In this document: piece after piece, positions 1-17,547 of the stretch | Position numbering within the stretch: the stretch's first letter is position 1 | How the letters are laid out: each line of letters starts with the position of its first letter | Assembly (NCBI GenBank): GCA_963800255.1 | Contig: CAWDAK010000016.1 | Span: 12,815-76,814, forward strand | Source of the DNA: an uncultured Ignavibacteria bacterium | GTDB lineage: Bacteria; Bacteroidota; Ignavibacteria; Ignavibacteriales; Ignavibacteriaceae | Direction: 5' to 3' | DNA: 64,000 bases | The notes under the pieces: generated by a model | Database searches by the model: none | The model's input: the letters and a program-made list of their open reading frames with translations, nothing else | Told to the model about the DNA's origin: nothing | Translations under genes and position numbers: made by a program

Positions 1-235
1 TATCCGAAAACACCAACCCCTCACCACCCCGTACATCCCCCACACCCTCCTTATGCATCCGGCAACTCCCACCAACCTCTTATGTATCTTCCCAATTGCT
101 CTTTGCATCCGCCACCTCGCCCGATATGTCACGAACCTGCCATATTGCGCCTTGCCTTCGGTGCATCGCACCGCAACGTTCGTAGACCCGCGTATCCAAA
201 AACACCAACCCCCACCAATCTATAAATTTCTGTCG
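1..235. repeat. Dispersed intergenic repeat family, partial copy/array at window edge
   Basis: About 81..215 matches about 3503..3638 almost base for base by eye. 1..60 matches the tails at 3612.. and 3843... Core hairpin CGGTGC-ATC-GCACCG at 159..173. ORF 53..277 lies wholly inside the repeat. Confidence 0.8.
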
Positions 236-364
236 TTTTTCCGCATCATAATCTCAGTAGTCCCTATTTCAGTATGAACCCCGGTGCACGCGAATAATTG
301 GGGTTGTTTATTTTATTTAATTCTTATATGTTGAAATCACGAAATATAGGGAAAGGGTTATTTA

Positions 365-1159
365 ATGCGGGAGCCGTTTAAACCATCGAAATCATTTTTT
401 CAGTTATTCTTCCTGTTAATTGTAATTACCGCCGCCGGCTGCAGCGATAAGGTCGTGTCTCCGCCTCCGGAGAAGGTCTTCGGTGTGCAGGGTACTGTGC
501 TGGATACTGCCGGAAACCCGGTTAGCGGGGCAAAGTTTTACTGCTTGTTCGATTACGGGTATATACCGGATTCTACGGGTGGACCCTCGTTCCCTGATAG
601 TCCGCTGAGAGATAGTGTCTTCAGTAATGAGCTTTTTCAGAATTTCCCTAACCCGCTTTCCAAAGATACTTACCTCAGGTTCTCCCTCCACCAGAAAAGC
701 GCCGTGGATTTGAGGCTTATATCAAAGCTTGACGGCAGTGTGGTGTATGAGCTTCAGGATACTTTGGAGTATGGTCTTTACCAGCGGTACCTCGCCATTG
801 GCAGCAGCCCCCGGGTGAAGAACGGCATTTACCGCTATGTGCTTGGTATTACTCCCATCGGAGGGACGCCCATTCAATTTGAGAAGGAGATGCTGATATT
901 GAATTACAGCAATGCGCCTAATTTTGTTTCCACAAGCTCCGGGTACTATTTGTTCAATTATAATGATGCTTTTGTCGGCGACACGGTGAGTGATTGCTAC
1001 TCTTTTGAACCCGGGAGTATTTATAAACATATTATTACTCCCATCGTTTATATGCGGGTTTCTAAGGAAGGGTATATAACGCAATGGCTTGGTTTTAATT
1101 TGTTCGAGGGGGTGCTTTTTAACCAGGATATTATTCTCCGGAAGGAGGAAAATTTATGA
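365..1159 (+). CDS. Secreted lipoprotein-like protein with an internal T9SS-CTD-like segment
   Basis: N-terminal hydrophobic segment ends in AAGCS (lipobox-like). Residues ~90-180 read LFQNFPNPLSKDTYLRFSL...GIYRYVL...FEKEMLILN, the pattern of a Por_Secre_tail domain, followed by ~85 further residues. The stop overlaps the next start (ATGA). Confidence 0.6.
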   Translation: MREPFKPSKSFFQLFFLLIVITAAGCSDKVVSPPPEKVFGVQGTVLDTAGNPVSGAKFYCLFDYGYIPDSTGGPSFPDSPLRDSVFSNELFQNFPNPLSKDTYLRFSLHQKSAVDLRLISKLDGSVVYELQDTLEYGLYQRYLAIGSSPRVKNGIYRYVLGITPIGGTPIQFEKEMLILNYSNAPNFVSTSSGYYLFNYNDAFVGDTVSDCYSFEPGSIYKHIITPIVYMRVSKEGYITQWLGFNLFEGVLFNQDIILRKEENL

Positions 1160-3372
1160 GGACCGCAGCTTTCCTAATCGTGCTCTTTGTTATTCTTTGC
1201 GGTGAAGCTTTCCCGCAGGGCGCCTGGCAGTGGATTACTCCTTATCCTTCTCCGTATCTGCCTTCTCATTCTGATCTTAACGGGGGGACGGTTTATTACA
1301 AATCGGGCAGATCGTTTTATAAGTCTTCTGACGGCGGACTTACTTTCAGCCATCCGGTTTCTTTCGCTGCTCCTGGCAATGGGCAGCCTCTTGCTTCGGG
1401 AAGTAAGATATCTTTTGCGGATTCTCTTATCGGCTTTATTACTGATGATTATGTTTATAGGACTCTTGACGGCGGAAAGACATGGACAAACTATATTCAG
1501 ACTTACGGATACCATATGGTTGAGTTTGCAGAGGGCGGAACGGGCTGGCTGCTGGGATCGGCTTTTAGAAAGTCTACTGATTATGGAGTGACCTGGAACT
1601 ATCTGAATTCCAACTTATTCGGTATTCCCGGCCCTGCGTATAATATTTTTGCCCTGGATGAGCATCGGTTGTGGGTGTGCAAGTCGTTTAATTATGATAA
1701 CGGCGGATCTGTCTGCTATAGTTCTGACGGCGGCTATACGTGGAGTGTTCAGAGTCCTGTATCTTCTGATTCTCTTAATCACGTCTTCTTCGTTGATGTG
1801 CGCGTGAATGAAACAGGGATCGGTTTTGCGGTGGGCTATGTTCAGAATGCGGTGGATTATTCTTCTAAACCCCTGGTTTTGCGTACTACTGACTTCGGAA
1901 GTGACTGGCAGGTGGTTCCCTCTGATAGTTCTGTCTTTCCCCGGTTTATTGTTTCAAAGAATGACCGTGAATGGGTACTTGTTGGCACTAATGAATATAA
2001 TTCAATTACTTCGCTTATGAGAACTGATGACTCCGGTTTGACCTGGGAATATAAAACGAATATTTTCGGGGCCACCGTCTGGGAAATGGTTTCTACTGCT
2101 GAGTATGTTTCTTCTGAGGACCTCCTCCTGGTGAGCGGTACTCACGGTATTTATCGTTCTTATGATTTTGGGGATTCTTTCACCAGGGTTTCGGGTAAGA
2201 ATGATATAAGTTTTAACGGCTTTGCGATTGACAGACAGGCAGCTTCGCTTGAAAATCAGCTGGCTGTGGTGATCTCAACTGGCGACAGCCTGATTTTTAG
2301 TGAAGACGGCGGCAGGAACTGGGAAAAGCAGTTTTTCCCGGATCAGGGGACGTTCACAGGCGAGGTTGCGGTTTCGGAGAGGACTATATTTGCCGTAAGC
2401 AATGCGACTAACCTTATAAAATCAACGGATCACGGTGCTTCGTGGCAAGTTATTTTCAGCGGATTTGGAGGTATAAGGAATCTGGAAGCTCTTTCTTCTT
2501 CAGATGTTGCCTTCGTTTCCTGGGACGGTCGTAACATAGTTTTATTTTATACGCTTAACGGAGGTGAAAACTGGTATACAACGCCCTATTTCAACTGGTT
2601 TGAAAACGATATGGATATGTTTTCACCCGGCAAGGTGTATGCCTGCGGGCGTTACGCAGTTTCAGCCGGGTCGCAGGGGTATATTTATTCTACGGATAAT
2701 TACGGGCGCGACTGGCGTATTTTTGATACTGAAGATGAGGTGTTAAAAATCAAATCGCTCGATCCTTCTACGGCTTTTGCTGTTTCAGCTCATAATCAAT
2801 ACCGTACAACTAATGCCGGTAAAACGTGGGTGAAGAGGCTGCATACTTCAGGCTACTATTCAAACTTTTCTTTCAGGGATTCATTGAATGGAATTTTGAA
2901 TATAGATTACGATTTACATGAAACAACTGACGGGGGACGAAACTGGCGGCGTATAGGTGATAAACTGCCCGGTATAGGTAACTGGCCTTATATGGAATAT
3001 AATAAAGCGGGCGACTTACTTATTGCCGGCGGCAGCGGAGTGGGCATACTTGAGAATGAAAATTATAATCCCGGCGAAAAGTTTGAAAATCCTCATCCCC
3101 AAAAACCCGTCGATTATACATTGTATCAGAATTATCCCAATCCCTTCAACCCCACAACTTCCATAAAGTATGAAATACAGAATGGCGGACTGGTGCAGCT
3201 GAAGGTATATGATATACTCGGCAGGGAGGTAGTCACGCTCGTTAATGCCTACCAGCCCTCAGGAAATCATACGGTGGAATTCGATGGTCATAATTTGTCA
3301 AGCGGAATTTATTTCTATCAGCTTAAATCAGGCAGCTTTTCTTCAACCAGAAAATTTATCCTGATGAAATAA
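1156..3372 (+). CDS. Secreted BNR/Asp-box beta-propeller protein with T9SS type-A C-terminal sorting domain
   Basis: Signal-like N-terminus. At least 12 Asp-box-like motifs (SSDGGLTF, TLDGGKTW, STDYGVTW, SSDGGYTW, TDDSGLTW, SEDGGRNW, STDHGASW, TTDGGRNW and others). C-terminus YQNYPNPFNPTTSIKYEI...KVYDILGREV...GIYFYQLKSG...KFILMK is a classic T9SS CTD. Confidence 0.85.
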   Translation: MRTAAFLIVLFVILCGEAFPQGAWQWITPYPSPYLPSHSDLNGGTVYYKSGRSFYKSSDGGLTFSHPVSFAAPGNGQPLASGSKISFADSLIGFITDDYVYRTLDGGKTWTNYIQTYGYHMVEFAEGGTGWLLGSAFRKSTDYGVTWNYLNSNLFGIPGPAYNIFALDEHRLWVCKSFNYDNGGSVCYSSDGGYTWSVQSPVSSDSLNHVFFVDVRVNETGIGFAVGYVQNAVDYSSKPLVLRTTDFGSDWQVVPSDSSVFPRFIVSKNDREWVLVGTNEYNSITSLMRTDDSGLTWEYKTNIFGATVWEMVSTAEYVSSEDLLLVSGTHGIYRSYDFGDSFTRVSGKNDISFNGFAIDRQAASLENQLAVVISTGDSLIFSEDGGRNWEKQFFPDQGTFTGEVAVSERTIFAVSNATNLIKSTDHGASWQVIFSGFGGIRNLEALSSSDVAFVSWDGRNIVLFYTLNGGENWYTTPYFNWFENDMDMFSPGKVYACGRYAVSAGSQGYIYSTDNYGRDWRIFDTEDEVLKIKSLDPSTAFAVSAHNQYRTTNAGKTWVKRLHTSGYYSNFSFRDSLNGILNIDYDLHETTDGGRNWRRIGDKLPGIGNWPYMEYNKAGDLLIAGGSGVGILENENYNPGEKFENPHPQKPVDYTLYQNYPNPFNPTTSIKYEIQNGGLVQLKVYDILGREVVTLVNAYQPSGNHTVEFDGHNLSSGIYFYQLKSGSFSSTRKFILMK

Positions 3373-3374
3373 AA

Positions 3375-3905
3375 AAAGAACCCGGTACCGCACCCATCGC
3401 TTTACGTATTTCCTCGTTATTGCGCCTTGCATCCGATGCCTCGCACCAACACGTTCGTAACATCTTCGTGTAATCATTCCAACTCTCCTTGCCGCATTGT
3501 ATTATGTATCTTCCTAATTGCTTTTTGCATCCGGCCACCTCGCCCGATATGTCACGAACCTGCCATATTGCCCCTTGCCTTCGGTGCATCGCACCGCAAC
3601 GTTCGTAGACCTGCGTATCCAAAAACACCAACCCCCCACCACCCCGCACATCCCCCACACCCTCCCTATTGCACCTTGCATCCGTTGCAACTCACCAACG
3701 TCTTATGCTTCTTCCTAAAACATCCCCCCACACCTTCCTTATTGCCCCTTGCATCCGGCCCCTCACACCATCGTCTTCTGTATTTCCTTGCTATTGCCCT
3801 TTGCCTTCGGTGCATCGCACCGCAACGTTCGTAGACCTGCGTATCCGAAAACACCAACCCCACCAACCTCCCTCCACACCTCTCCAACCTCCCCCCACAC
3901 CCCTC
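3375..3905. repeat. Array of the dispersed intergenic repeat family (about 2.3 units of ~225 nt)
   Basis: Repeated block ...TTGCCTTCGGTGCATCGCACCGCAACGTTCGTAGACCTGCGTATCC(A/G)AAAACACCAACCCC... with hairpin cores at 3582..3596 and 3808..3822. Near-identical to 81..215. Confidence 0.85.
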
Positions 3906-4051
3906 ACCACCCCCAGAATAATATTAAAGCTATGCCGCAATCAGCCATTATTATTGGCGCAAATGCCTCTTTCCCTGTTCATTATTTTCTGCTAGATTAC
4001 AAATGTTTAATTAAAACAATATAAATCAACAATTCAGCAGCGAGGCGCGAT

Positions 4052-4667
4052 ATGAGAAAAATAATCGTTTCATCATTTATTACATTGGATGGCGTGATGC
4101 AGGCTCCGGGAGGCCCTGAAGAGGACGAATCCGGAAATTTCAGGTACGGCGGTTGGTCTGCACCTTATGGCGACGATGTTGCCGCTGAACTTATGAATAA
4201 GCAGATGATACCTGCTGACCTCCTTTTAGGCAGAAAAACATTTGAAATTTTTGCCTCTTACTGGCCTGAGCATGCAGCGGTCTGGCCGGGAATCAATGAT
4301 GTTACTAAATATGTTCTGTCTACAACCATGAAAAAGTCAGATTGGAAGAACTCGGTTTTTCTCAGCAGCCTGGAAGATATTAAAAAGCTCAAAAATCAGT
4401 CTGCCGGCAGTAACGACTCTAGAGAGTTCCAACATTGTGGTTTGGGGAAGCAGTGAGCTTATTCAATTACTGCTTAAAAATGATCTGGTGGACGAACTCT
4501 GGCTTAAAATTTATCCCTTAACCCTTGGTGAAGGAAAAAAGTTATTTATTGATGGTGCAATCGCGGCAGCGTTTACATTAATTGAAAGTTCTGTTACGTC
4601 TGATGGAGTTATTTTTGCCAATTACAAGAGAGCCGGGGATGTAACAACAGGCACCGTTGGAGCTTAA
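4052..4667 (+). pseudogene. Dihydrofolate reductase family (RibD C-terminal domain, YyaP/YwjB-like) gene split by a +1 frameshift
   Basis: ORF 4052..4456 starts MRKIIVSSFITLDGVMQAPGGPEED..GGW, the typical N-terminus of this family. ORF 4437..4667 (GTG start) reads VWGSSELIQLLLKNDLVDELWLKIYPLTLGEGKKLF, the typical C-terminal half. 4437-4052 = 385 = 3n+1, so the frame break lies roughly at 4400..4436. Confidence 0.75.
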
Positions 4668-5029
4668 GACAATTTTCCAGTTATCGTTTTTCCGCATCCT
4701 AACTTTTGGCAAGTATCATTCCCCAAACGAGCAGGCAAATGATAACTGCATGGTAGATAATCGCAGCTTTCGAAATCAATCACTTATCTTTTTCATCGTC
4801 CGCCTTCACTATTAAATAAAGCAGTTGAGTGGAATCCTGATATAATCCGTTGTCATTAAATAATAGTTAACTATTGACTATTAATATTTTATATACGAAG
4901 TTGTCTAAAAATAGTTGAGTTTGATTCCGGATAAGGTCCTGGGCCTACGACCGTGTTCAGGAAGGTATGTTGAAACAAAAAGGATGATATTTTTAAAATA
5001 GCATTTACAATATAAATTGAGGTGCAGTA

Positions 5030-5617
5030 ATGAAAAATCACAATCCTTTCCGGAGTTTGTTTGCATTTTGCCTGGCCTGTTTTTCTCTGCTTATAATTAT
5101 CGGCTGTTCAGGCGAGGGTAAAGACAATAATTATTCGGAAGAATTAAAAGTAAAGGATGAGGCACAGCCCCAGGAAAAGCAGTCGGGCTTTGATATTTCA
5201 AAAATCAATATTTGTGAATTGGTTCCCGACGAATTAGTTGCAAAGACTCTGGGAGCAAAAACAATTAAACCGGCTGTTAGCAGTGATTACGGCGTTACTA
5301 AAGGATGCACTTATGTAATTGATCCCGCTGGTCCTGATAACATCGAAAATTGTATAGTCTGGACTAACCCCCCTTCAACGTTTACAAGCACGGAAGATGA
5401 ATTGGAAACTGCAAAAGGACTTGGACAGGAGGCATCGGCTGAAAATCTTGAAGGACTGGGTGATGAAGCTTTTGTAGTGCACAATAAAACCGAACAGCAG
5501 TCAGTAATTTTTGTTCTGCTTAAGGGTAAAATGAGTTTACAGGTTGGTGCGGATCATTTTGAAGATGCAAAAAAGCTGACGGAACTTATTTTATCTGAGC
5601 TTAAGAATATTCAATAA
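5030..5617 (+). CDS. Hypothetical lipoprotein
   Basis: Signal peptide with lipobox LLIIIGCSG, preceded by GAGG. No recognisable catalytic motif. Confidence 0.55.
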   Translation: MKNHNPFRSLFAFCLACFSLLIIIGCSGEGKDNNYSEELKVKDEAQPQEKQSGFDISKINICELVPDELVAKTLGAKTIKPAVSSDYGVTKGCTYVIDPAGPDNIENCIVWTNPPSTFTSTEDELETAKGLGQEASAENLEGLGDEAFVVHNKTEQQSVIFVLLKGKMSLQVGADHFEDAKKLTELILSELKNIQ

Positions 5618-5639
5618 TAGTGGAATGATAGGTTTTCCG

Positions 5640-5800
5640 GGGTATGGAGGGTGGATACCTGTAACTACTGATATATCGGTGCGCTGCACCTAAGAGCAAA
5701 AATCCACGAATATTGCAGAGCGCTGCACCTAAGAGCAAAAATCCTCGAATGTTGCGGTGCGCGTACCTAAAGCAAGAATCCACGAGTATTGCAGAGCGCC
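5640..5800. repeat. Dispersed intergenic repeat family, reverse orientation, degenerate tandem copies
   Basis: GGTGGATACCTGTAACTACTGATATATCGGTGCGCTGCACC is the reverse complement of the 41-nt unit seen at 17228.. and elsewhere. It is followed by ~45-nt repeats ...GCGCTGCACCTAAGAGCAAAAATCC.CGAAT.TTGC... Confidence 0.7.
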
Positions 5801-5813
5801 GCACCGGGCAGAC

Positions 5814-6800
5814 TCATTGCCGTACTGCTTCTGCCTTCTGAATTAGAAGTTCTTTATCGTAACCGGTTATTTTGTCGAACAATTTGCCGTCTTTATAAAA
5901 GCTTACAACGGGGATCATGTCTTTGGATATGCCGAACTCATCACCGATCATTTTGTCTTCTTCGATATCGACTAAAACTGTCTTTATACCGGCCGGTGAA
6001 GGCAGCAGGCTTGGATAGTATTTCCTGCATTGGGTGCAGGTATCTGCACTCCATAAAACAATCACCGGTTTTTCGGCTTCTTTAAGGAATGTATTCAGGT
6101 CGTAATCACCCAAAAGCCTGAGGGAGTAAGGCGACATTTGGTCATACGCCGCTTTTGATACACTTATGTCAAACGGTTCACCGGTTCTTTTGATTGTAAG
6201 TTTAATACTGCCTGATTCTTCTGAGTCAATTTTATTAAGAACTTCCTGCAGACTTAAGCCGGCTATATCTTCACCGTTTACCCTCAGGATTTTATCGCCT
6301 GCATAAAATTTTTGCATTCTGCTGCTTACGCGGTGACCTACTTTGTCAATGCTTTTAATATATATGCCATCGGGAAGCGCCATTAGCTTCATTCCTACCA
6401 GGGCCGATTTCCTGTTTGCTTTAAGGTTTTCTTCCACTCGTTTAATATCTGCTTCAACATTTTCTTTATCGGGTGCATCCGGGTAAAGCTCAAGGTATTT
6501 TTTAAATTCCTTTACCGAGTTTGTTAAATTCCCCTCCAGCATTAAAAGGGTTCTGCCCAGGTAATAATGCACATCGGCAAATTCCGGAGCCGCTTTATTT
6601 ACTTCTTTGAACAGTCTTAATGCATTATCAATGTCGGCTGGTACTTTTGCCGAATCTACATCGTTTATTCCTTCAAGCAGCAGGTCTTTAACATTGTCAG
6701 GGATTTCCTGCTGTGCATTGAGCGGTATAGCCGCAGCGAATTCCAATACAAAAAGCAGAACAATAACCAGACAACTATTTTTGTGGTTTCTCGAGATCAT
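5814..6800 (-). CDS. Secreted TPR - PDZ - thioredoxin-like (CxxC) fusion protein
   Basis: Signal peptide. TPR-like helical N-terminal part. PDZ-like stretch PDGIYIKSIDKVGHRVSS..FYAGDKILRVNGEDIAGLSLQEVLNKI. Trx-like VIVLWSADTCTQCRKYYP...KTVLVDIEED...VVSFYKDGK. Confidence 0.65.
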   Translation of the reverse strand: MISRNHKNSCLVIVLLFVLEFAAAIPLNAQQEIPDNVKDLLLEGINDVDSAKVPADIDNALRLFKEVNKAAPEFADVHYYLGRTLLMLEGNLTNSVKEFKKYLELYPDAPDKENVEADIKRVEENLKANRKSALVGMKLMALPDGIYIKSIDKVGHRVSSRMQKFYAGDKILRVNGEDIAGLSLQEVLNKIDSEESGSIKLTIKRTGEPFDISVSKAAYDQMSPYSLRLLGDYDLNTFLKEAEKPVIVLWSADTCTQCRKYYPSLLPSPAGIKTVLVDIEEDKMIGDEFGISKDMIPVVSFYKDGKLFDKITGYDKELLIQKAEAVRQ

Positions 6801-7902
6801 AAGTACTCCGGATATTTTCTAAATTTTCTAAACTGGTTTTACTTTTATTTAATTCCGCATCAACACTGTTGCCTTCTTCAACTGATTCATTTAGCGCTGC
6901 AAGGGCTTCTTTTAACAGCTGATCGCCGTCGTTTTCAGGCGGGTTTAATTTCAGTTCTTCCACTGCCTGTTTCTTTTCTTCTATAACTTTTTTAATGCTC
7001 GTCTCTTTTTCTTTTAACAACTCCACATTAACTTTAATACTGTCAGCCTTGTATTTTACGGCCTGGTAAATCATTTGCTGAAATCCAACGGGGTTTGCAG
7101 TGCTTACATCAGGGATTACATATTTTATTTCGGGACAATCGGATGACTTCGGGTTTGTAAAATCTGAAAGTGAACGCATATTTTCCATCGAACCATCGGG
7201 ATCTTCAAAATTACCGTTTCCCAGCAAAACAGTTTCAGCCGCTTCAATGCTTTGCTGTGAGGCGCAATTCAGCTGTTTAATATTCTTCATAGCTTCCGAC
7301 TTTACAATCCTGTTTTTGAAATCGTTTGCCGTATTTTTTTGCTGATCTGAAAAATTTTCACTCAGTATTTGTGAATACTCAGCCTGTACCTTTTCTACCT
7401 GCTGCTTCCATTTTTCCTGTTTTTCTTTGGCTAAACGAATCTCTTCTTCAGTTAGCGGACGCGGTGTCGGGGAGACGTATACATTGCTGTGACCCTGGGA
7501 AGTGGTGTTTTCATCAGTGGAAGGTGAAAATATCCAGTCAAACAGTCCCTGAATTAAAGGTGCGGCTACGGTCTCTACCAATTGTTGATTGAAATCTCCG
7601 CTGCCTGATGAACCCCCGTAACTTGTGCTGCTTGTACCATCACATTTTTCACAATGCATTTTTCCCCTGATGTACGGGTCGCCCGACTGACTAACCGCTT
7701 GATCAATCATTTGCTTACATTCTGTTTCAGTAGAAAAATTACCCTGGCGTTTTGCGTAACTGATTCCTTGCTGCCGCAGTTCGTTAATTAGTTGATCTGA
7801 ATAGACTATTTGCCATTGGGCAAAAGTTGTTTCGGAAAAAAAGAAAAACGGAATTACGCTTAGCAAAAGACCTGTTTTTAAGGTGTGCATTCTTTTGTTC
7901 AT
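6775..7902 (-). CDS. Hypothetical secreted coiled-coil protein
   Basis: Signal peptide ending TFAQ. The long K/E/Q-rich helical C-terminal half has no recognisable motif. Confidence 0.5.
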   Translation of the reverse strand: MNKRMHTLKTGLLLSVIPFFFFSETTFAQWQIVYSDQLINELRQQGISYAKRQGNFSTETECKQMIDQAVSQSGDPYIRGKMHCEKCDGTSSTSYGGSSGSGDFNQQLVETVAAPLIQGLFDWIFSPSTDENTTSQGHSNVYVSPTPRPLTEEEIRLAKEKQEKWKQQVEKVQAEYSQILSENFSDQQKNTANDFKNRIVKSEAMKNIKQLNCASQQSIEAAETVLLGNGNFEDPDGSMENMRSLSDFTNPKSSDCPEIKYVIPDVSTANPVGFQQMIYQAVKYKADSIKVNVELLKEKETSIKKVIEEKKQAVEELKLNPPENDGDQLLKEALAALNESVEEGNSVDAELNKSKTSLENLENIRSTYDLEKPQK

Positions 7903-7957
7903 ATTAATTCCTTTAGATTTAATTTATAATTGCCGTCTTCCGCTGAACAAAGTATAT

Positions 7958-9505: not shown

Positions 9506-9710
9506 TTATGATTCCTCCGCAGTCAGGCAATTGATATTGTACAAATGAAAGTGTGTAAAAAAACAGATAGGATAAACATAGGGCATGATCTTCACCTGGA
9601 TTCTCCCTGTTAGTAAAATGGAGGCCGCAGTAAGTCAACAACAGTTTGCAGAATAAATTATTTCTACTATGTAAAGCTAAATTATATTAACCCGGAAAGC
9701 AACCCATCAC

Positions 9711-10230
9711 TTCCTTGCCGCATCACCCCGTCGCGCCCATCGTGTTACGTATTCCTTGCTATTGCTCTTTGTATTCGGTGCAGCGCACCGATATATCCGT
9801 AGCATCCATCTCGAAAACAATCAACCCTTCACACCCGCACGTTGTGCATTCCTTGCCGCATCTCCCGTCGCGCCCATCGTGTTACGTATTCCTTGCTATT
9901 GCTCTTTGTATTCGGTGCAGCGCACCGATATATCCGTAGCATCCATCTCGAAAACAATCAACCCTTCACTACCCACACGTTATGCATTCCTTGCCGCATC
10001 TCCCGTCGCCGCCCCATCGTGTTACGTATTCCTTGCTATTGCTCTTTGTATTCGGTGCAGCGCACCGATATATCCGTAGCATCCATCTCGAAAACAATCA
10101 ACCCTTCACTACCCACACGTTGTGCATTCCTTGCCGCATCTTTCCGTCGCGCCCCATCGTGTTACGTATTCCTTGCTATTGCTCTATGTATTCGGTGCAG
10201 CGCACCGCAACATTCGTAGACGTCCGTACC
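9711..10230. repeat. Tandem array, ~3.8 units of 138-140 bp, of the dispersed repeat family
   Basis: Unit starts (TTCCTTGCCG) at 9711, 9849, 9987 and 10127. Each unit carries CGGTGCAGCGCACCG, the first at 9776..9790. The tail of the last unit switches to the GCAAC.TTCGTAGAC subfamily. Confidence 0.9.
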
Positions 10231-10499
10231 TAAAACCACCCCTCAACACCCATTCCCTCGCTGATCACCGGTGCGATGCACCTAACCCCTTGCCAACTGC
10301 CATTTTCCTGTATGTCATTTTTGTCATACTATTTATTTTTTCAACAGTGCAAAATTGCGTTTTTTCGCTGTTTTCGCATTGTCTCATTTTGAGAGCAAAA
10401 GGCGCATAAAAGGCCCATAACAGGCGCACAAATACTGCATAACAAAGCAGTATGACAAAATGGCAGACTGTTAATTATTTCAACAGGGATATCTACCAA

Positions 10500-10680
10500 C
10501 CTTGCACCTTGATGCGGCGCGTTAAGGCGGGAGGGTTGGTATAAGGAACGGGATATCTATTAACGTATTTCCTAGGTGCATCGCACCATAGAAATGCGGT
10601 AATGTGATGATAGGATTTTCGTTTTTCGGTGCAGCGCACCGACATATCAGCAGCTTAAATGTGCCCCCCCTCATCACCCC
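10500..10680. repeat. Dispersed intergenic repeat family, mixed-orientation copies
   Basis: AGGTGCATCGCACC at ~10575. ATGCGGTAATGTGATGATAGGATTTTCGTTTTTCGGTGCAGCGCACCGACATATCAGCAG matches the units at 17040..17110. Confidence 0.75.
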
Positions 10681-10687
10681 TTAATTG

Positions 10688-12157
10688 TTACTTAATTACT
10701 TCTTCCCTTGTGTATTTATCTCCTGATACTTCAACTGCCGTTTTGTATGCAAGGTCCACTATCTTCTCAAATAATTCCGGGTTCAGGGTTGACGTTTTGT
10801 CCGACGGCTGGTGAAGGTGATCGTAGCTGTTGGTTGTAACAAAGTATAAACAGGGAATCCCCTTTTCGTGGAAGGGGGTGGCATCTGCACCGCCGCCGTT
10901 CCAGGTTGCTTCTACCATCATCTTGCTATTTGCCTTATCAATCTGCCTGGCAATCTGCCATAGACCCGGTGCGCTTTTCCCGTTGCCGATCTTTATGCTG
11001 TCCCCGTATCCTATGCAGTCGAGGTTCAGCATCGCGGCTATCTTTCCGTAACCTTTGTCCCAGCTTTCAACAAAGTGCTTCGCTCCGTATAATCCCTGCT
11101 CTTCGCTCGCAAATAATACAAATATAACCGAGCGCTCAGGCTTTATTTCGTTCCTTGCAAAAGCCTTGGCTATTTCCAGAACTCCCGAGGCCCCCGAAGC
11201 GTTGTCATTTGCGCCCGGGAAAAGTAGTCCCGCCTGCGTGCCTACGTGATCAAGGTGTCCGCCTATAACTATAAATTCATTTTTAAGTTCGGGATCGCTT
11301 CCCTCAATCATCCCCGCCACGTTCATCGTACGCGCTTCCTTCTGGTACTTTGCGTTTACTTCAACCACAGCTTTTGACTGCAGGTTTACTGAGTAAGGTG
11401 CTTTTGCTGAGTCAATATTCTCTTGACACCCGCTTATCGTAATGCCTGACCCGCTTAATAGCTTATCGGCCGCCTCAAGTGAAATGTGAAGCTGGGGAAA
11501 ATCTTCCGGCTGTTCTCCGTCACCATGAAGCACGCTGCCTATCAACGGCTGCGGTTCCTTGTCATTCGGCAGTGAAACGAAGAGTATGCCCTTTGCCCCG
11601 TGACTCATTGCGGTAAGCGACTTCTCCCGCGGATAGCCTTCGCCCCATCCTTTGTCGCCAATCTTCCACCCCGGATTGTACTTGAACACTATTACTACTT
11701 TATCCTTTACGTCTATTCCTGCGTAATCGTCGTAGCCAAGGTCGGGCCGGGAAATTCCGTATCCGCAGAAAGCAGCCGGCAGTGTAAAGTTGCCTGATCC
11801 CGTAAATCCCCGCAGTACAAAGTCCTTCCCGATTTCATATCCGGTTGTGTCTGCGCCTGTTATCACCTTGAAAACAGCAGGTGATTTTATATCGTTATAC
11901 TCAACGTTGAAATTCTGAAAGTAGTTCTCGCCGCCCGCAGGCATCAACCCGAATTCCGAAAACTGACCTGCCGCAAACCCGGCCGCCTTGTTGTAGCCTT
12001 CGCTGCCCGGCAGCCTTCCCCCGAATTCAGGGGATGAAAGGGTGCTGTCGTACTTCAGAAGGTCTTCTTTGTTTATCTTGTACGTCTCAGCAGGATTCTG
12101 TGCATAGGTCATTATTGATGAAAGTAAAAGGGTAAGGGTAAGTAGTGTTGTTTTCAT
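10688..12157 (-). CDS. M28 family aminopeptidase with PA domain
   Basis: Signal peptide. GGHLDHVG, GANDNASGASGVLEIAKAF and ASEEQGLYGAKHF are the canonical M28 zinc-ligand blocks. Confidence 0.85.
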   Translation of the reverse strand: MKTTLLTLTLLLSSIMTYAQNPAETYKINKEDLLKYDSTLSSPEFGGRLPGSEGYNKAAGFAAGQFSEFGLMPAGGENYFQNFNVEYNDIKSPAVFKVITGADTTGYEIGKDFVLRGFTGSGNFTLPAAFCGYGISRPDLGYDDYAGIDVKDKVVIVFKYNPGWKIGDKGWGEGYPREKSLTAMSHGAKGILFVSLPNDKEPQPLIGSVLHGDGEQPEDFPQLHISLEAADKLLSGSGITISGCQENIDSAKAPYSVNLQSKAVVEVNAKYQKEARTMNVAGMIEGSDPELKNEFIVIGGHLDHVGTQAGLLFPGANDNASGASGVLEIAKAFARNEIKPERSVIFVLFASEEQGLYGAKHFVESWDKGYGKIAAMLNLDCIGYGDSIKIGNGKSAPGLWQIARQIDKANSKMMVEATWNGGGADATPFHEKGIPCLYFVTTNSYDHLHQPSDKTSTLNPELFEKIVDLAYKTAVEVSGDKYTREEVIK

Positions 12158-12239
12158 ATCAGGTTATATGTTTATAAAATGTGAGTACAAAAATACGAAA
12201 TGATAATGCATTGTGCATAACCGCAGCGTTTATGAAAGC

Positions 12240-12722
12240 TTACTTGCCTTGTATGGTGTAGTCGCTAACTTCATCCTTATCATTAAAGGCTATTACAAGC
12301 CACCTTGTGCCGCTGCTATACTGTGAGGGTCCCAGGTAGTACTCCATATCCCATTCCGGAAAATTCCTCGTGCTGTCAGGATTCCCAAGCATACTAAGGA
12401 TTCCTGCCCGGTTGTACCCTAGCAGTTTTTTGCGCATCATTAGCTGCGGCATCATTCTGTCACGGGTATTGTCAGCGGGATTTCTGAGACCGGCATTCTT
12501 CCATTTTTCAGATATGAAAGGCAGGTCGTTGGAACCCGGCGCCCCTACATAGTTCATCATCTTCCTGCTTACTGCATAATAAATTGAATCGGAAAAGATT
12601 ACCCCCAGCGCAATGAAAAGAATTAACCCTGCCAGAATGTATTTGTTAGCGAAAAATATTTGGGGGCGCGCAAGGATCAGTAGAAGGAATATCCCTATTA
12701 TTACTATTTTAGGTAATACCAT
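12240..12722 (-). CDS. Hypothetical membrane protein
   Basis: Two N-terminal hydrophobic helices. The C-terminal ~70 aa are faintly BamE/SmpA-like (LGNPDS....W.MEYYLG). Confidence 0.4.
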   Translation of the reverse strand: MVLPKIVIIGIFLLLILARPQIFFANKYILAGLILFIALGVIFSDSIYYAVSRKMMNYVGAPGSNDLPFISEKWKNAGLRNPADNTRDRMMPQLMMRKKLLGYNRAGILSMLGNPDSTRNFPEWDMEYYLGPSQYSSGTRWLVIAFNDKDEVSDYTIQGK

Positions 12723-12950
12723 AACCCGCTCTTGTTTTCGTTCCTGCTTGAACCTATGTTCAAATGCAACTTAATTAGTCCCGCACTTAATTACAATTCC
12801 CCTCTTCATTTTTAATTTAGTATTAACCCGTATGATTACCTGATAGCGCACCATCGGCCGTTGATGTATCCGGGACCTGAGTATTCAATTCGGTTTAATA
12901 CTCAACCACTCAACTGCCCATCCTCTCGACTGCCCATTACCGGTTATTCC

Positions 12951-13436
12951 TTAACCGTTATCCCTTCCGCAATACTCCCTGAACTTATTCAGTATGTACG
13001 GCCATCCCTGCTCTGACTTCATTGCATCATAATATTCCTCCCAGCCTTCTCCATGCTTCGAAAGTTTGCCGTGCTCAAACTCTACTCCCGTTACCTCTGG
13101 CTCTAACTCCTTGAATAATACGGTTATTTCACTGGCTTTGCCGGGATCAGGTTCGGGAACACGGGCGGGACTTATCTGCCAGGTAATTACTAATTTATCC
13201 GGAGCTTCATACGTCATCACTCTTCCCCAGTCGCACCTGAAATTGTAAGGGCCCGTTTCATAGCATTTGCCGCCGGTCTCCGGCTCTATCTTTATTTCTT
13301 CCAGTACCTGCCCCGACCATGTGTATTCCTTCGGCCACCAGCTGTTCAGCCCGGTGATGAATCTCTTAAAGGTTTCTTCCCGCGGAAGCTGTATTTCCAT
13401 TTCAATTTTTATTCTATCATCTTTATTCTGCTTCAT
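12951..13436 (-). CDS. SRPBCC / Aha1-like (activator of Hsp90 ATPase homolog 1-like) domain protein
   Basis: IEMEIQLPREETFKRFITGLNSWWPKEYTW... is typical of AHSA1/SRPBCC. I prefer the internal start MKQNKDD at 13436 over the ORF-track start at 13541, which adds an implausible Cys/Arg-rich leader. Confidence 0.65.
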   Translation of the reverse strand: MKQNKDDRIKIEMEIQLPREETFKRFITGLNSWWPKEYTWSGQVLEEIKIEPETGGKCYETGPYNFRCDWGRVMTYEAPDKLVITWQISPARVPEPDPGKASEITVLFKELEPEVTGVEFEHGKLSKHGEGWEEYYDAMKSEQGWPYILNKFREYCGRDNG

Positions 13437-13722
13437 AATTCTCCTCCTCGGATTATTAGATTTCCTCCTCATACACACAAATTGCATTATATGAGTATTT
13501 GGTCCCGCCTCGGTGATGTACGACCATCTGAGGGACGGCAACGAGGTTTTCCTGTTAACGTAAAAATTATAGGTGTAAATGACTGTGATGGCCTGCTTTA
13601 ATGCTGAACTTCCCGCTTATCTCGCTTTATCTCCACTCATAATTTTCTGCTTTTCAATTGCCCCTAAAGTTTGTTAAAATAGGTTGAATTATTATTTGTT
13701 TTTTCAAACTACTGGAATAAAA

Positions 13723-15759
13723 ATGGTTAAACCCGCTCATTTTATACTGATTGTTTTTGCTGCATCACTCCTTTCTGCCGCAATGATTTATCCCCAGGAA
13801 AAGGGAGATTTTTTAACTAACGCTATGGATACCACCGTCGACCCGGGTGCTGATTTCTTTAAGTACTCAACCGGTACCTGGATGAAGGAGAACCCCATTC
13901 CTGCTTCGGAACGCAGGTGGGGACTTGCAAACCTCGTTAACGAGGAAACTTACTCACGGCTTAAAGGAATCCTTCAGGAGGCTTCTTCTGCGCATTCGCC
14001 CGAGGGAACGGCTAAACAGAAAATAGGCGACTTCTATTTTACGGGTATGGATACGGTCTCTATTGAAAAATCGGGCCTTGATCCCCTTAAACCTGAACTC
14101 GATAAGATCGCTTCCATAAAATCTGAAAAGGATTTGTTCGAAACGGTTGCTCTGCTTCAGCGCGAGGGCGTGAATGTTATGTTCGGTCTCTTTGTTGACC
14201 AGGATATGAAGAACAGCGAACAGTATTCGATGTACTTGTGGCAGGGGGGACTTGGCCTTCCGAACCGCGAATATTACTTCCGCGACGATGCCCGTACTCA
14301 GAATATCCGCGATGAGTATAAAAACTATATCAGCAACTCGCTCGGCCAGCTTGGCGAGGATAATGGCAGCGCCGCAGCTGATGAAAACGTAATCTATACA
14401 ATGGAAAATTTCCTTGCTGATTCGTCACGTAAGCTGGAGGATCTTCGCGATCCTTATGCAAATTATAATAAGATGTCGGTTGCAGAGCTTGAGAAATCCG
14501 CTCCCAATATCGAGTGGGCCGTGCTGCTGAAAGATCTGGGTGCCGGAGGCGTGGATTCAATTATTGTGGGCCAGCCTGAGTTCGTTAACGCTCTTAATGC
14601 CGCCGTTAAAAAGTTTAGTCTTGACGACTGGAAGACATACCTCAGGTTCCACTTCCTTAGTGAGTTTGCAGGCCGTCTTGGAAGCAAATATGACAACGAA
14701 AGATTTCATTTCTACGGAACGGTGATGTCAGGCGTAACGGAGCAGAAACCCCGCTGGAAGAGAATTCAGGATGCCACTGAAGGCGCTATGGGCGAGCTGC
14801 TGGGACAGATTTACGTTGAGAAATATTATTCTCCTAAAACCAAAAAGCGCTATGAAAAAATTGTTGATGATTGTATAGATGCTTTTGCAAACAGGATTAA
14901 GAACCTGGACTGGATGAGCGATTCAACAAAACAGAAAGCGCTGGTTAAGCTGTATGCCGTTACTAAGAAAGTCGGGTACCCTGAGAAGTGGAAGGACTTT
15001 TCTTCTTTGAAGGTTGACCGCGGCTCTTTTGCACGGAATACTATTGGCGCGAATGTTTTCTGGACAGATTACTCGCTTAACAAACTGGGTAAACCGGTTG
15101 ACAGGCTTGTATGGGATTTAACCCCGCAGACCTGGAACGCATACTATAACCCTTCAAACAACGAGATCGTTCTGCCCGCAGCAGCCTTTATTGTACCAGG
15201 TGTTCCTGATTCACTTGTTGATGATGCTGTGGCTTATGCATATGCAGGAGCCTCCACAATAGGGCACGAGCTTACTCACGGTTTTGATGACGAGGGAAGA
15301 CTCTTTGATGAAAAGGGCAACCTGAAGAACTGGTGGACGAAGCAGGATGAGGAAAAGTTCAAAGAGAAAACTCAGATGATGGTTGACCAGTTTAATGAAT
15401 ATGTTGTGCTTGACAGTATGCATATAAACGGTGAGGCTACACTGGGAGAGAATATTGCCGACTTAGGCGGTGATGTTATTGGATGGGATGCTTTTGTAAA
15501 AACAAAGCAGTATAAGGAAGGGAAGAAGATCGCCGGTCTTACTCCTGCCCAGCGATTCTGGATTGGCTACGCTTATTCGTGGCTGGGACATACACGTCCT
15601 GAAGCACTTGCCCAGCAGGTTCTAAGCGACGTGCATTCACCTAACTTCCTGCGCATTAACGGTCCTTTTACAGATGTTGATGCCTGGTACAACTCTTTCG
15701 ATATTAAACCGGATGCACCGATGTACAGGGCCCCCGACAAACGTGTGAGGATCTGGTAA
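13723..15759 (+). CDS. M13 family metalloendopeptidase (neprilysin/PepO-like)
   Basis: HELTHGFDDEG (HExxH) and GENIADLGG motifs, with C-terminal RVRIW, typical of M13. The start is taken at MVKPAHF, ahead of the signal peptide. Confidence 0.9.
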   Translation: MVKPAHFILIVFAASLLSAAMIYPQEKGDFLTNAMDTTVDPGADFFKYSTGTWMKENPIPASERRWGLANLVNEETYSRLKGILQEASSAHSPEGTAKQKIGDFYFTGMDTVSIEKSGLDPLKPELDKIASIKSEKDLFETVALLQREGVNVMFGLFVDQDMKNSEQYSMYLWQGGLGLPNREYYFRDDARTQNIRDEYKNYISNSLGQLGEDNGSAAADENVIYTMENFLADSSRKLEDLRDPYANYNKMSVAELEKSAPNIEWAVLLKDLGAGGVDSIIVGQPEFVNALNAAVKKFSLDDWKTYLRFHFLSEFAGRLGSKYDNERFHFYGTVMSGVTEQKPRWKRIQDATEGAMGELLGQIYVEKYYSPKTKKRYEKIVDDCIDAFANRIKNLDWMSDSTKQKALVKLYAVTKKVGYPEKWKDFSSLKVDRGSFARNTIGANVFWTDYSLNKLGKPVDRLVWDLTPQTWNAYYNPSNNEIVLPAAAFIVPGVPDSLVDDAVAYAYAGASTIGHELTHGFDDEGRLFDEKGNLKNWWTKQDEEKFKEKTQMMVDQFNEYVVLDSMHINGEATLGENIADLGGDVIGWDAFVKTKQYKEGKKIAGLTPAQRFWIGYAYSWLGHTRPEALAQQVLSDVHSPNFLRINGPFTDVDAWYNSFDIKPDAPMYRAPDKRVRIW

Positions 15760-15793
15760 GTGAATTGATTAGTGGGGTTGTCTTAAATATGTC

Positions 15794-15814
15794 ATTCCGA
15801 ATTTATTTCGGAAT
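15794..15814. terminator. Hairpin ATTCCGAA-TTTAT-TTCGGAAT between convergent genes, nested in an outer inverted repeat (TGTCTTAAA / TTTAAGACA)
   Basis: Perfect 8-bp stem between the M13 stop (15759) and the protease-gene stop (15865). The outer arms lie at ~15778..15787 and ~15846..15855. The same 25-mer GTCATTCCGAATTTATTTCGGAATC recurs at 61071..61188. Confidence 0.55.
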
Positions 15815-15864
15815 CATCGCTTATCAGCTTGACAATATCCGATCTTTTAAGACAGCCTCATTCT

Positions 15865-16909
15865 TTATTCCCCCTCGCGGGATTTCAGGGTAATCTCGTA
15901 GCCCTCGCTTCTTAACATAACACGATTCTTATACAAAAAATCTTGTATCGCTTCAGCAGGTATTATCTTCGTTATGCCGTACTTTATGCTTTTATGAATT
16001 TTAGGGTAATTCTCCCCTTCGTACGGAATCAGCGTGTTGTATTTTCTGCCCGCTCCCAGTTTTTGAGGCGCTAAGAAAACCTCCTCTTCTTCAGGTACCC
16101 ACTGTACCATTCCAACCATCTCAAAGTGCGGTACGCCGTCTCTTATTGCAAGCACAAGCCCCCCGCTGAATCCCGGGTTAACAACTGCGTCTACAAGGAA
16201 CGAGCCCTGACTGTCGCGGTTGGGACTGCTAACGATCGCCTTTGTAACCATCTGGTAATTTATGGGGTAACCGAACAAATATACAAATGTGCCCCACTCA
16301 AGCTGCTTTGAATAACCGGCGGGGTAGGGGAATACAGGAATCCTGAAACCCGTCTGCGCACTGTATTTCTTCCCCAGCAATGCTATATCAGCCTGGTCAT
16401 CTTTTACCAGTAGTTCAACTTCGCTTCCCTCGGGAAATCCTGCCACATAAATATGCTCTTTATCTTTTATGGAGATGGTTTCAAGATAAGGAGTGGTCAT
16501 TCCGCTTTTATCTGTCCTGTATGCCGCAATCGTATCAGGGAAACTTACTATATGTGCGCAGGTAATTAAAGCAATTGCCCCGTTCTGCGAGGATACTGTA
16601 AACGCTGTACCCGACAATGAATTATTGCCGTACTCTACCGAATCAGCCTTCTTACTGAATACTCTCATCATTCAGCGCTGAATACCTTACTTTATCTTCC
16701 GGAGAAAACTTGTATATCTTATAAAATACGGTGCAGGTTATCCGCTGGACAGATTCGCTTATTCTTTCAAGTTCAGATGAGGATGATTTATAAGGGAATT
16801 CGCTGTCGTACTTCCCATCATTGAGTGTAGGGTAAACAGTTTCAAGAGTGGTAGAACATGAGTTTAGTATTAAAGAGATTAAAACAAGCGGGAATATCTT
16901 TTTCAACAT
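15865..16909 (-). pseudogene. Trypsin-like serine protease lipoprotein, apparently split by a +1 frameshift
   Basis: ORF 16652..16909 encodes only a lipoprotein signal (LISLILNSCS) plus ~60 aa. ORF 15865..16671 has no signal but carries LITCAHIV (His) and NPGFSGGLV (GxSGG Ser). The ORFs overlap by 20 nt, and 16909-16671 = 238 = 3n+1. Confidence 0.5.
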
Positions 16910-16980
16910 TTTGGCTCATATTTATTTGACTAAATCTAAACAGAAAGTAAAAACTAGTCAAATAATCTGGAAAAAGACCG

Positions 16981-17547
16981 GGGGGATGCGGATTGGATAC
17001 GGTTGATCTATTAACGTTGCGGTGCGATGCACCGGGGGGATGCGGTAATGTGATGAGAGGATTTTTGTTTTCGGTGCAGCGCACCGGTATATCAGTAGGC
17101 CCCGATATCCACCATCCCCCACACTCTCTGTCACCGAGTGGGGATGCGGTAATTGTGATGATGGTTGATATATTCATTTTTCGGTGCATGCACCAGTGAA
17201 CGGTAATGTGATGAGATGATTTTCATTCTTCGGTGCAGCGCACCGATACATCAGTAGGCCCCGGTATCCACCCCCCACGCTCTCTGCTCCCGTGAACGGT
17301 AACGTGATGATATGATTTTCATTCTTCGGTGCAGCGCACCGGTACATCAGTAGGCACCGATATCCACCACTCTCTCACGTGTCTTCGGTGCAGCGCACCG
17401 GTGATATCAGTAGGTACCGATATCCACCCTCCTACGTTTCTCGTGCCCCCGTGAACGGTAACGTGATGATATGATTTTCATTCTTCGGTGCAGCGCACCG
17501 ATACATCAGTAGGTACCGGTATCCACCCCCCCCACACTCTCCGTCAC
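16981..17547. repeat. Composite array of the dispersed intergenic repeat family
   Basis: Five near-identical 41-nt units TTCGGTGCAGCGCACCG(A/G)TA(C/T)ATCAGTAGG.ACCG.TATCCACC. Most are preceded by GTGAACGGTAA(C/T)GTGATGA.ATGATTTTCATTC. One reverse-orientation A/B-type copy sits at ~16990..17035. Confidence 0.9.

Follow-up and report, generated by a model that had tools for sequence, protein, structure and literature searches.

Repetitive extragenic palindromic (REP) sequences, together with the bacterial interspersed mosaic elements (BIMEs), REP doublets forming hairpins (REPINs) and REP-associated tyrosine transposases (RAYTs) described around them, are referred to here as REPtrons (Nunvar 2010; PMC3116915; PMC3479197; PMC3733652). 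REP-RAYT systems are well studied in Proteobacteria, and hardly in Bacteroidota and their allies. The REP motif is GT[AG]G (or CGTC), situated 0–2 nt from the foot of the hairpin (PMC3733652, PMC6006769). Head-to-tail dimers are rare for GTAG REPs, and loss of a REPtron with retention of its REPs has been reported (both PMC3733652). In this work we describe a family of intergenic box-plus-hairpin repeats, probably REPtron-like, in a 64,000-nt stretch of DNA (hereafter, the window) from an uncultured Ignavibacteria bacterium. The window corresponds to positions 12815–76814 of contig C16 of a metagenome-assembled genome (MAG) of 4.46 Mb (40% G+C, 29 contigs, 99.85% complete, 8.5% contamination), with proteins that end in sorting domains of the type IX secretion system (T9SS).

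The family resembles REPtrons in that it consists of short GC-rich extragenic hairpins with a one-sided motif, present in hundreds of copies and in sharply different numbers in close relatives, with complementary stem sub-families. As in REPtrons, copies are clustered and form arrays together with flanking DNA, some of them being inverted doublets, and relatives of this genome have a single Y1 HUH gene with the same repeats on both sides. It differs from them in that a 10-nt box, CTAYTRAYRT, lies 2–3 nt from the stem in place of GT[AG]G at its foot, the stem has 5–6 bp, and head-to-tail arrays dominate. Moreover, the linked enzyme is IS200-like (Y---Q--HH) and not a RAYT (Y---NP), and the search for an enzyme gene in this genome gave none.

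Three other systems have to be considered. The Y---Q--HH motif is the mark of subclass 1.2 of the TnpA-Y1 enzymes, a subclass whose members are low-copy, generally lack the IS200 terminal structures, occur mainly in Cyanobacteria and Bacteroidetes and do not share insertion sequence (IS) properties; no partner repeats have been reported for them (Quentin, Siguier, Chandler, Fichant 2018, PMC6006769). The Y1 proteins linked to the present family have in common with this subclass the combination of DHIH and Y---Q--HH, the single module-flanked copy per genome and the occurrence in Bacteroidota, whereas their genes lie inside arrays of a dispersed hairpin family. They are Y1 HUH enzymes of the IS200 type, as are those of IS200/IS605 elements, whose non-autonomous derivatives are the palindrome-associated transposable elements (PATEs). 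The ends of IS608-type elements carry a subterminal hairpin and a short motif some nucleotides away from it. Unlike in IS200/IS605, the flanked gene is single-copy, the repeats far outnumber it in tandem arrays, and tnpB is absent. Finally, the minisatellites of the mycobacterial interspersed repetitive unit (MIRU) type are dispersed intergenic tandem arrays, with units of 40–140 nt and a copy number specific to each locus. The present family shares with them the dispersed intergenic tandem arrangement; MIRUs are not known to have a conserved hairpin-plus-box core or a linked HUH gene, features that of the two only the present family has.

The exact core sequence CGGTGCNNNGCACCG occurs 14 times in the window, at positions 159, 3582, 3808, 9776, 9913, 10053, 10193, 10627, 17020, 17072, 17231, 17327, 17386 and 17486, while none is expected from 100 shuffles. 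The hairpin family reported by the first-pass annotation of this DNA is hence real. Two further cores, at 5677 and 10269, carry one mismatch, and positions 5745, 5783, 10575 and 17182 correspond to degenerate copies. The coordinates given in that annotation are accurate to about 10 nt, and its description of the family could be largely confirmed: copies exist in both orientations (loops ATC/AGC versus GAT/GCT), every window copy lies outside open reading frames (ORFs), and the two proposed subfamilies with longer conserved flanks are real. Repeat finding shows these subfamilies to be array-specific flanks; segments 111–213 and 3534–3636 are 98% identical, and flank identity is 85–91% for 17189–17540. 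The absence of copies between 17.6 and 64 kb was also confirmed, upon running a superfamily covariance model with filters off on all 64 kb; 15 strong and about 5 weak matches were obtained, none of them beyond position 17,523. It should be noted that, with CGGTGC-KMT-GCACCT as the commonest hairpin, a search for the exact core detects less than one third of the family. An Rfam scan of the element, which the first-pass annotation did not recognise, gave no family match at the gathering threshold or at E≤1. A full-text literature search for the hairpin sequence retrieved no relevant paper, and no paper joining Ignavibacteria and intergenic repeats was found.

Genome-wide, iterated nhmmer searches identified 194 modules in 53 arrays, distributed over 15 contigs; all 53 arrays are intergenic. 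The consensus, for which all 59 exact cores of the genome were oriented alike, corresponds to a module with a defined direction and a length of about 32 nt, comprising the box CTAYTRAYRT, a spacer of 2–3 nt, a GC hairpin of 5–6 bp with a 3-nt loop, and a purine tail. In its context, G-rich DNA precedes the box, which can be written as (A)TCTAYTRAYRT, and the tail reads, for example, AAGG or GGGA. When perfect hairpins of the form NNNGC-N3-GCNNN were counted in the genome, two stems predominated: GGTGC, with 207 copies (205 intergenic), and GCCGC, with 66 (59 intergenic); any other NNNGC stem has at most 14 copies. The total amounts to about 260 copies. The GGTGC and GCCGC stems differ by two compensatory pair changes and have the box in common, which is found at the same register in 49 of the 59 distinct GCCGC copies.

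As pair counts on pre-selected hairpins add nothing independent, the conservation of the hairpin was evaluated with the box as the only anchor, so as to avoid circularity. A perfect 5-bp hairpin, placed at the fixed register, follows 190 of 285 intergenic boxes, compared with 15 of 283 genic ones. Box-anchored stems included 128 of the type GGTGC/GCACC and 50 of the type GCCGC/GCGGC, and no chimeric combination of both. The existence of two common stem types, with none chimeric, indicates that the hairpin has been kept through a double compensatory change.

The arrays are mostly head-to-tail, in one orientation and locally homogenised, and only the module is common between different arrays. 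Each array has its own period, for example 39, 51 (14 units), 96, about 105 (7 units), 140 (3.6 units) or about 205 nt. Within the window there are only two inverted doublets, at 10546/10619 and 16997/17064. A CRISPR array was considered and rejected: the spacing varies between 39 and 205 nt, and inside any one array the "spacers" are repeats too. It was also observed that 8 of the 28 G-quadruplex motifs of the genome lie in or beside arrays (0.8% of the genome), all of them on the G-rich strand of the module, these counts being too small to build on.

Comparison with related genomes showed that orthologous sites can be empty. The gene order between 5.8 and 21 kb of the window is conserved in a congener, G015, with 78–90% protein identity. 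Intergenic DNA of G015 can be aligned up to the arrays that we term D1 (9700–10310) and D2 (10540–10687) and again beyond them, and neither gap contains an array in that genome. Both in G015 and in genome G011, a 1207-aa T9SS-cargo gene is followed by a canonical intrinsic terminator, with a GC hairpin and then T9 on the strand of the gene; in the genome studied here, its place is occupied by the 560-nt array E (16985–17547). Abundance is likewise specific to this lineage. Each of 15 congeners has 0–2 copies of the exact core and 0–6 copies when the superfamily model is used, and 40 further genera of the family gave no match to the GGTGC model. The 13-nt hairpin was also counted in 300 sampled genomes of the phylum: it is present 198 times in this genome, the next three have 32, 21 and 5 copies, and most have 0–3.

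These data bear on the suggestion, made in the first-pass annotation, that the element is REP/BIME-like or else resembles a miniature inverted-repeat transposable element (MITE). The comparison with REP/BIME sequences is sustained by the hairpin with its one-sided box, the strictly intergenic location, the empty sites in sister genomes and the flanking of a Y1 gene in relatives (see below). MITEs derived from an IS of the DDE type would also be small, non-coding, multi-copy, intergenic and lineage-specific. Nevertheless, no terminal inverted repeats bound a unit, copies stand in tandem and in one orientation, and target-site duplications are lacking at the two sites for which an empty counterpart is available. 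Genes of the IS110, rve and DDE_Tnp_1 types are present only once each in this genome, and none is near an array. A MITE origin is therefore hardly credible.

To describe the distribution of the arrays, intergenic gaps were taken from a crude map of ORFs, in which 88% of the sequence is coding. Considering gaps of at least 100 nt, 52 of 1468 are occupied genome-wide and 5 of 9 in the first 17.56 kb of the window, so that the statement that copies fill essentially every sizeable gap there was overstated. The family is indeed confined to the first 17.6 kb within the window, but the sharp boundary that had been pointed out at the edge of the block encoding a type VI secretion system (T6SS) is not noteworthy. 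The region between 17.56 and 64 kb contains four gaps of at least 100 nt (2.0 kb of intergenic DNA); none of them is occupied, and only about 0.14 occupied gaps would be expected. As there are only four such gaps, the T6SS block is empty without need of explanation. Unlike the boundary, the clustering of arrays within these first 17.6 kb is genuine. Occupied gaps of the genome form 10 adjacent pairs, compared with 1.5 expected, and none of 5000 shuffles reached 10. This part of the window lies within a 20-kb hot zone (C16:10.4–30.3 kb), and similar zones exist at C3:9.5–15.3 kb and C9:235–252 kb. The gene content to the left of 5.8 kb varies among congeners, which makes this a zone of flux.

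The clustering of arrays in zones, as well as a 6-N3-6 palindromic core of the kind read by dimeric proteins, would fit with arrays of binding sites for a host DNA-binding protein, kept for chromosome organisation, just as BIMEs bind gyrase, IHF and Pol I. Near-absence of the family in congeners with the same gene order argues against such a role, as do the one-sided, directional box and the link to a Y1 gene in relatives, and we regard it as very improbable.

Some further observations concern the genomic surroundings of the arrays. Genes encoding a T9SS C-terminal sorting motif account for 11 of the 93 genes that flank arrays versus 174 of 3638 (4.8%; odds ratio 2.8, p = 0.004), an enrichment possibly confounded by gap size and clustering. 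Contigs C1, C2, C4, C11 and C18 end in arrays. Segments of contigs C17/C6/C7 and of C18/C23/C2 are present whole two to three times, with at least 85% protein identity and with arrays at some of their ends; this fits with a strain mixture and with the 8.5% "contamination". A search of the genome for multi-copy IS-like genes retrieved duplicated contig segments only. The G+C content of the first 18 kb of the window is 0.40–0.49, compared with 0.40 for the genome, and the increase goes beyond the repeats alone, the region of the M28 peptidase gene having 0.49.

Conservation of a hairpin could also reflect a function at the RNA level. Arrays might act as structured or protein-sponging RNAs, or in cis as stabilisers, terminators or leader elements of neighbouring mRNAs. 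The compensatory changes described above would agree with this, although they are equally expected of a DNA hairpin recognised by a protein. One strand of the arrays is strongly C-rich and G-poor, resembling rho utilisation (rut) sites, and the other has GGAGG-like runs; array E stands in place of an intrinsic terminator, and convergent gaps are more often occupied (7.5%) than co-directional (2.6%) or divergent ones (3.2%; p = 0.006). However, the orientation of the arrays with respect to flanking genes shows no bias (15/12/12/10), nor is there any relation to local GC skew. The hairpin is not followed by a T-run on either strand, the sequence being A/G-rich on one strand and AYRT... on the other, and an intrinsic terminator could accordingly be discarded. 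Beyond the core hairpin, whole units fold no better than shuffled sequences (z from −0.9 to +0.6), with the exception of one subfamily (−2.9). Taking into account the random orientation, the lack of a T-run, of excess folding and of any Rfam match, and the absence in sister species, which speaks against a needed function, an RNA role for the arrays is unlikely, and we give this alternative little credit. Side effects on neighbours, such as on the gene with the displaced terminator, are likely.

Evidence for a partner enzyme comes from other genomes. Genes of the Y1_Tnp family were present in all five hairpin-bearing genomes searched, and in four of the five one of them lies within GGTGC hairpin arrays; other Y1 genes of the same genomes are accompanied by different hairpins. 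In all, a module-flanked Y1 gene was found in seven genomes (G067, G068, G069, G070, G138 and the congeners G008 and G004), one per genome. In G138, which belongs to the phylum sample, a 66%-identical Y1 gene is located exactly between two hairpin groups. In G008 and G004, which are of the same genus as the window, the module is present on both sides of a Y1 gene. In G008, inverted pairs bearing the GCCGC stem make up the two flanks, which are direct duplicates of each other. In these pairs boxes are outside and hairpins inside, as they are in the two inverted doublets of the window.

The flanked Y1 proteins are about 155–160 aa long and 45–61% identical to the G008 protein. They pass the NCBIfam model for IS200/IS605 transposases, NF033573, with 64–70 bits (cut-off 55), and fail the model for REP-associated tyrosine transposases, NF047646, with 25–27 bits (cut-off 80). 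The nearest solved structures are, with weak similarity, the IS200-type TnpA proteins of ISDra2 and Sulfolobus. In their alignment the HUH motif reads DHIH, and Y---Q--HH appears as KY(I/V)xNQxxHH.

The search was extended to 80 metagenomic loci with relatives of the flanked Y1 proteins. In most of them, GC-rich 5-bp hairpins with different stems (e.g., GGGGT/ACCCC and GGAGC/GCTCC) occur repeatedly, and many of the contigs are only 1–3 kb long; none of the 80 loci comes from this organism and none has GGTGC hairpins. The family extends across Bacteroidota. When all species genomes of GTDB were scanned for the 26-nt box plus hairpin, 20 loci were obtained; about that many could occur by chance in 596 Gb, but all 20 are in MAGs of Bacteroidota (Lentimicrobiaceae, Saprospiraceae, Bacteroidales, Ferruginibacter and Draconibacterium), many with neighbouring copies. 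No neighbour gene family of at least 80 aa recurs at these 20 loci, the link to Y1 genes having been found by a direct search for the family. It was also observed that in a Bacteroidales MAG (loci L048 and L061) and in a Lentimicrobium MAG (L055), arrays of this module with an exact period of 25 nt flank the Y1 gene on both sides. Their unit is TRATATTG-CGGTGCGCTGCACC-TAR, and the 25-nt period may represent the minimal duplicating unit.

We therefore favour, with a probability of roughly 70%, the reading that the repeats are a REP/REPtron-like module family, partner of a single-copy IS200-like Y1 enzyme, which was seeded in about 50 gaps and subsequently grew in tandem. Y1 enzyme molecules would bind the hairpin on single-stranded DNA and, by analogy with TnpA of IS200/IS605 and with E. 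coli TnpA-REP, would cut or join DNA at the box. Such an action would seed modules into the approximately 50 intergenic gaps of this lineage. Slippage or unequal recombination by the host would then build and homogenise the head-to-tail arrays, up to about 260 copies as compared with 0–6 in congeners. As in REPs, we are dealing with a short GC-rich extragenic palindrome in many copies, and with lineage-specific abundance and empty orthologous sites.

Several points weigh against this interpretation. The linkage to a Y1 gene in other genomes is an association and not a mechanism. No Y1 gene was found in this assembly: PF01797 gave no matches, a tblastn search of the genome with six cognate Y1 proteins gave a best E value of 0.14, and the positions at which G008 and G004 have the gene are intact in this assembly, but empty. 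The mobilising enzyme is absent exactly where the repeats are most abundant. Canonical REP features are also missing. GT[AG]G is not found at the foot of the hairpin, and the RTAG part of the box (reverse complement AYRTYARTAG) lies about 8–10 nt from the stem; stems have 5–6 bp; head-to-tail arrays, not inverted doublets, are the main arrangement; and a single-copy class-2 RAYT gene (Y---NP) surrounded by its own REPs is lacking. Finally, G306, a complete Bacteroidota genome, lacks a close homologue of the Y1 gene linked to the module. As an observation on its own, GGTGCTCTGCACC is present in G306 as 21 single copies dispersed over one chromosome, and this genome is possibly a second case of orphan hairpins.

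The missing gene is central to another explanation, namely that the arrays are orphan minisatellites, relics of a lost Y1 system that were multiplied and spread by host slippage, unequal crossing-over and gene conversion between arrays, without any transposase. The lack of a Y1 gene in a MAG rated 99.85% complete is what would be expected then, and the local homogenisation of arrays with periods of their own, the clustering of occupied gaps, the G306 hairpins without a close Y1 gene and the known retention of REPs after REPtron loss (PMC3733652) also point in this direction. Slippage, however, accounts for growth within a gap; it does not explain how about 50 gaps, spread over 15 contigs and empty in sister genomes, were seeded. 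Besides, several arrays are located at contig ends, and the Y1 gene, which normally lies within such arrays, is of the very kind that short-read bins lose. On balance we consider this explanation unlikely, although it deserves to be kept in mind.

Under the REPtron-like reading, we infer that the cognate Y1 gene of this genome is either unassembled or lost. The former is favoured by the fact that arrays end several contigs and that related Y1 genes are typically found on tiny contigs; the latter, by the G306 hairpins without a close homologue and by the precedent of REPtron loss (PMC3733652). The TnpB search found no tnpB in this genome either. A broader proposal would be that bacteroidotal Y1 proteins of subclass 1.2 are REP-processing enzymes with this module as their substrate, the largest burst so far being the one described here, whose approximately 260 copies are six times the number of the next of the 300 genomes. 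We put it forward tentatively, at slightly less than an even chance.

Within the window, the repeats are organised in the following arrays. Array A (1–290, minus strand) has a full module at 151–196, with its core at 159, and degenerate copies at 93–123. It shows a C-rich tail on the plus strand and extends upstream beyond the window to C16:12781. Array B (3400–3905, minus strand) contains full modules at 3574–3619 and 3800–3845, degenerate copies at 3418–3459, 3667–3708 and 3740–3781, and a 21-nt C-rich micro-repeat at 3857–3905. Array C (5645–5810, plus strand), located in a convergent gap, consists of a full module at 5654–5699 and, after it, 3.3 degenerate copies that recur every 39 nt. 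Array D1, on the minus strand, is made up of 3.6 copies of a 140-nt unit with 96% identity; its modules are at 9768–9813, 9905–9950, 10045–10090 and 10185–10230, and one reversed hairpin is found at 10269–10285. Array D2, without an overall orientation, is the inverted doublet 10546–10596 (plus) / 10619–10664 (minus), with boxes outside and hairpins inside, and adjoins the stop codon of the M28 peptidase gene. Array E, on the minus strand, begins with the inverted doublet 16997–17042 (plus) / 17064–17109 (minus) and continues with four modules (17223–17268, 17319–17364, 17378–17424 and 17478–17523), the unit being 96–159 nt.

Arrays also affect the interpretation of adjacent sequences. ORFs of 80–135 aa lie wholly within C-rich arrays at 3427–3834, 3669–3995 and 9756–10409 (plus strand), including 9842–10219; they are artefacts that arise because the repeats are poor in stop codons, and they may be annotated by gene callers. 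Next to array E, an 85-aa ORF with a signal-peptide-like start (16652–16909, minus strand) is included in 290 nt that are conserved in G015 and G011 and adjoin a trypsin-like peptidase gene. It is probably a real small gene, and the overlapping 115-aa ORF (16842–17189) that runs into array E is probably spurious. The stretch of about 190 nt between D1 and D2 (10311–10500) is conserved with the sister species G015 and contains the inverted repeat TGTCATACT...AGTATGACA (10319–10343 / 10436–10460), as well as TTTCAACAG twice. It looks like a regulatory region, which array D1 has separated by about 600 nt from the start of a 515-aa gene.

What is new in this work is a box-plus-hairpin family whose stem variants are compensatory, the finding that it occurs in Ignavibacteria and that congeners have REPtrons, and an extreme copy number without a detectable enzyme gene. 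In practical terms, arrays of this kind break short-read assemblies and create spurious ORFs, and one of them has displaced the terminator of a gene. With this family, a defined, short and testable DNA substrate (a 10-nt box plus a 13–15-nt hairpin) becomes available for a branch of the HUH single-strand DNA enzymes that is still uncharacterised. How such repeats spread, and at what cost, can be asked from the natural contrast between a genome with about 260 copies and no detectable enzyme gene and congeners that have the gene and a handful of copies. If the broader proposal on the Y1 proteins of subclass 1.2 is true, this genome may also show that repeats of this type can keep amplifying as tandem arrays after the gene of their enzyme has been lost.

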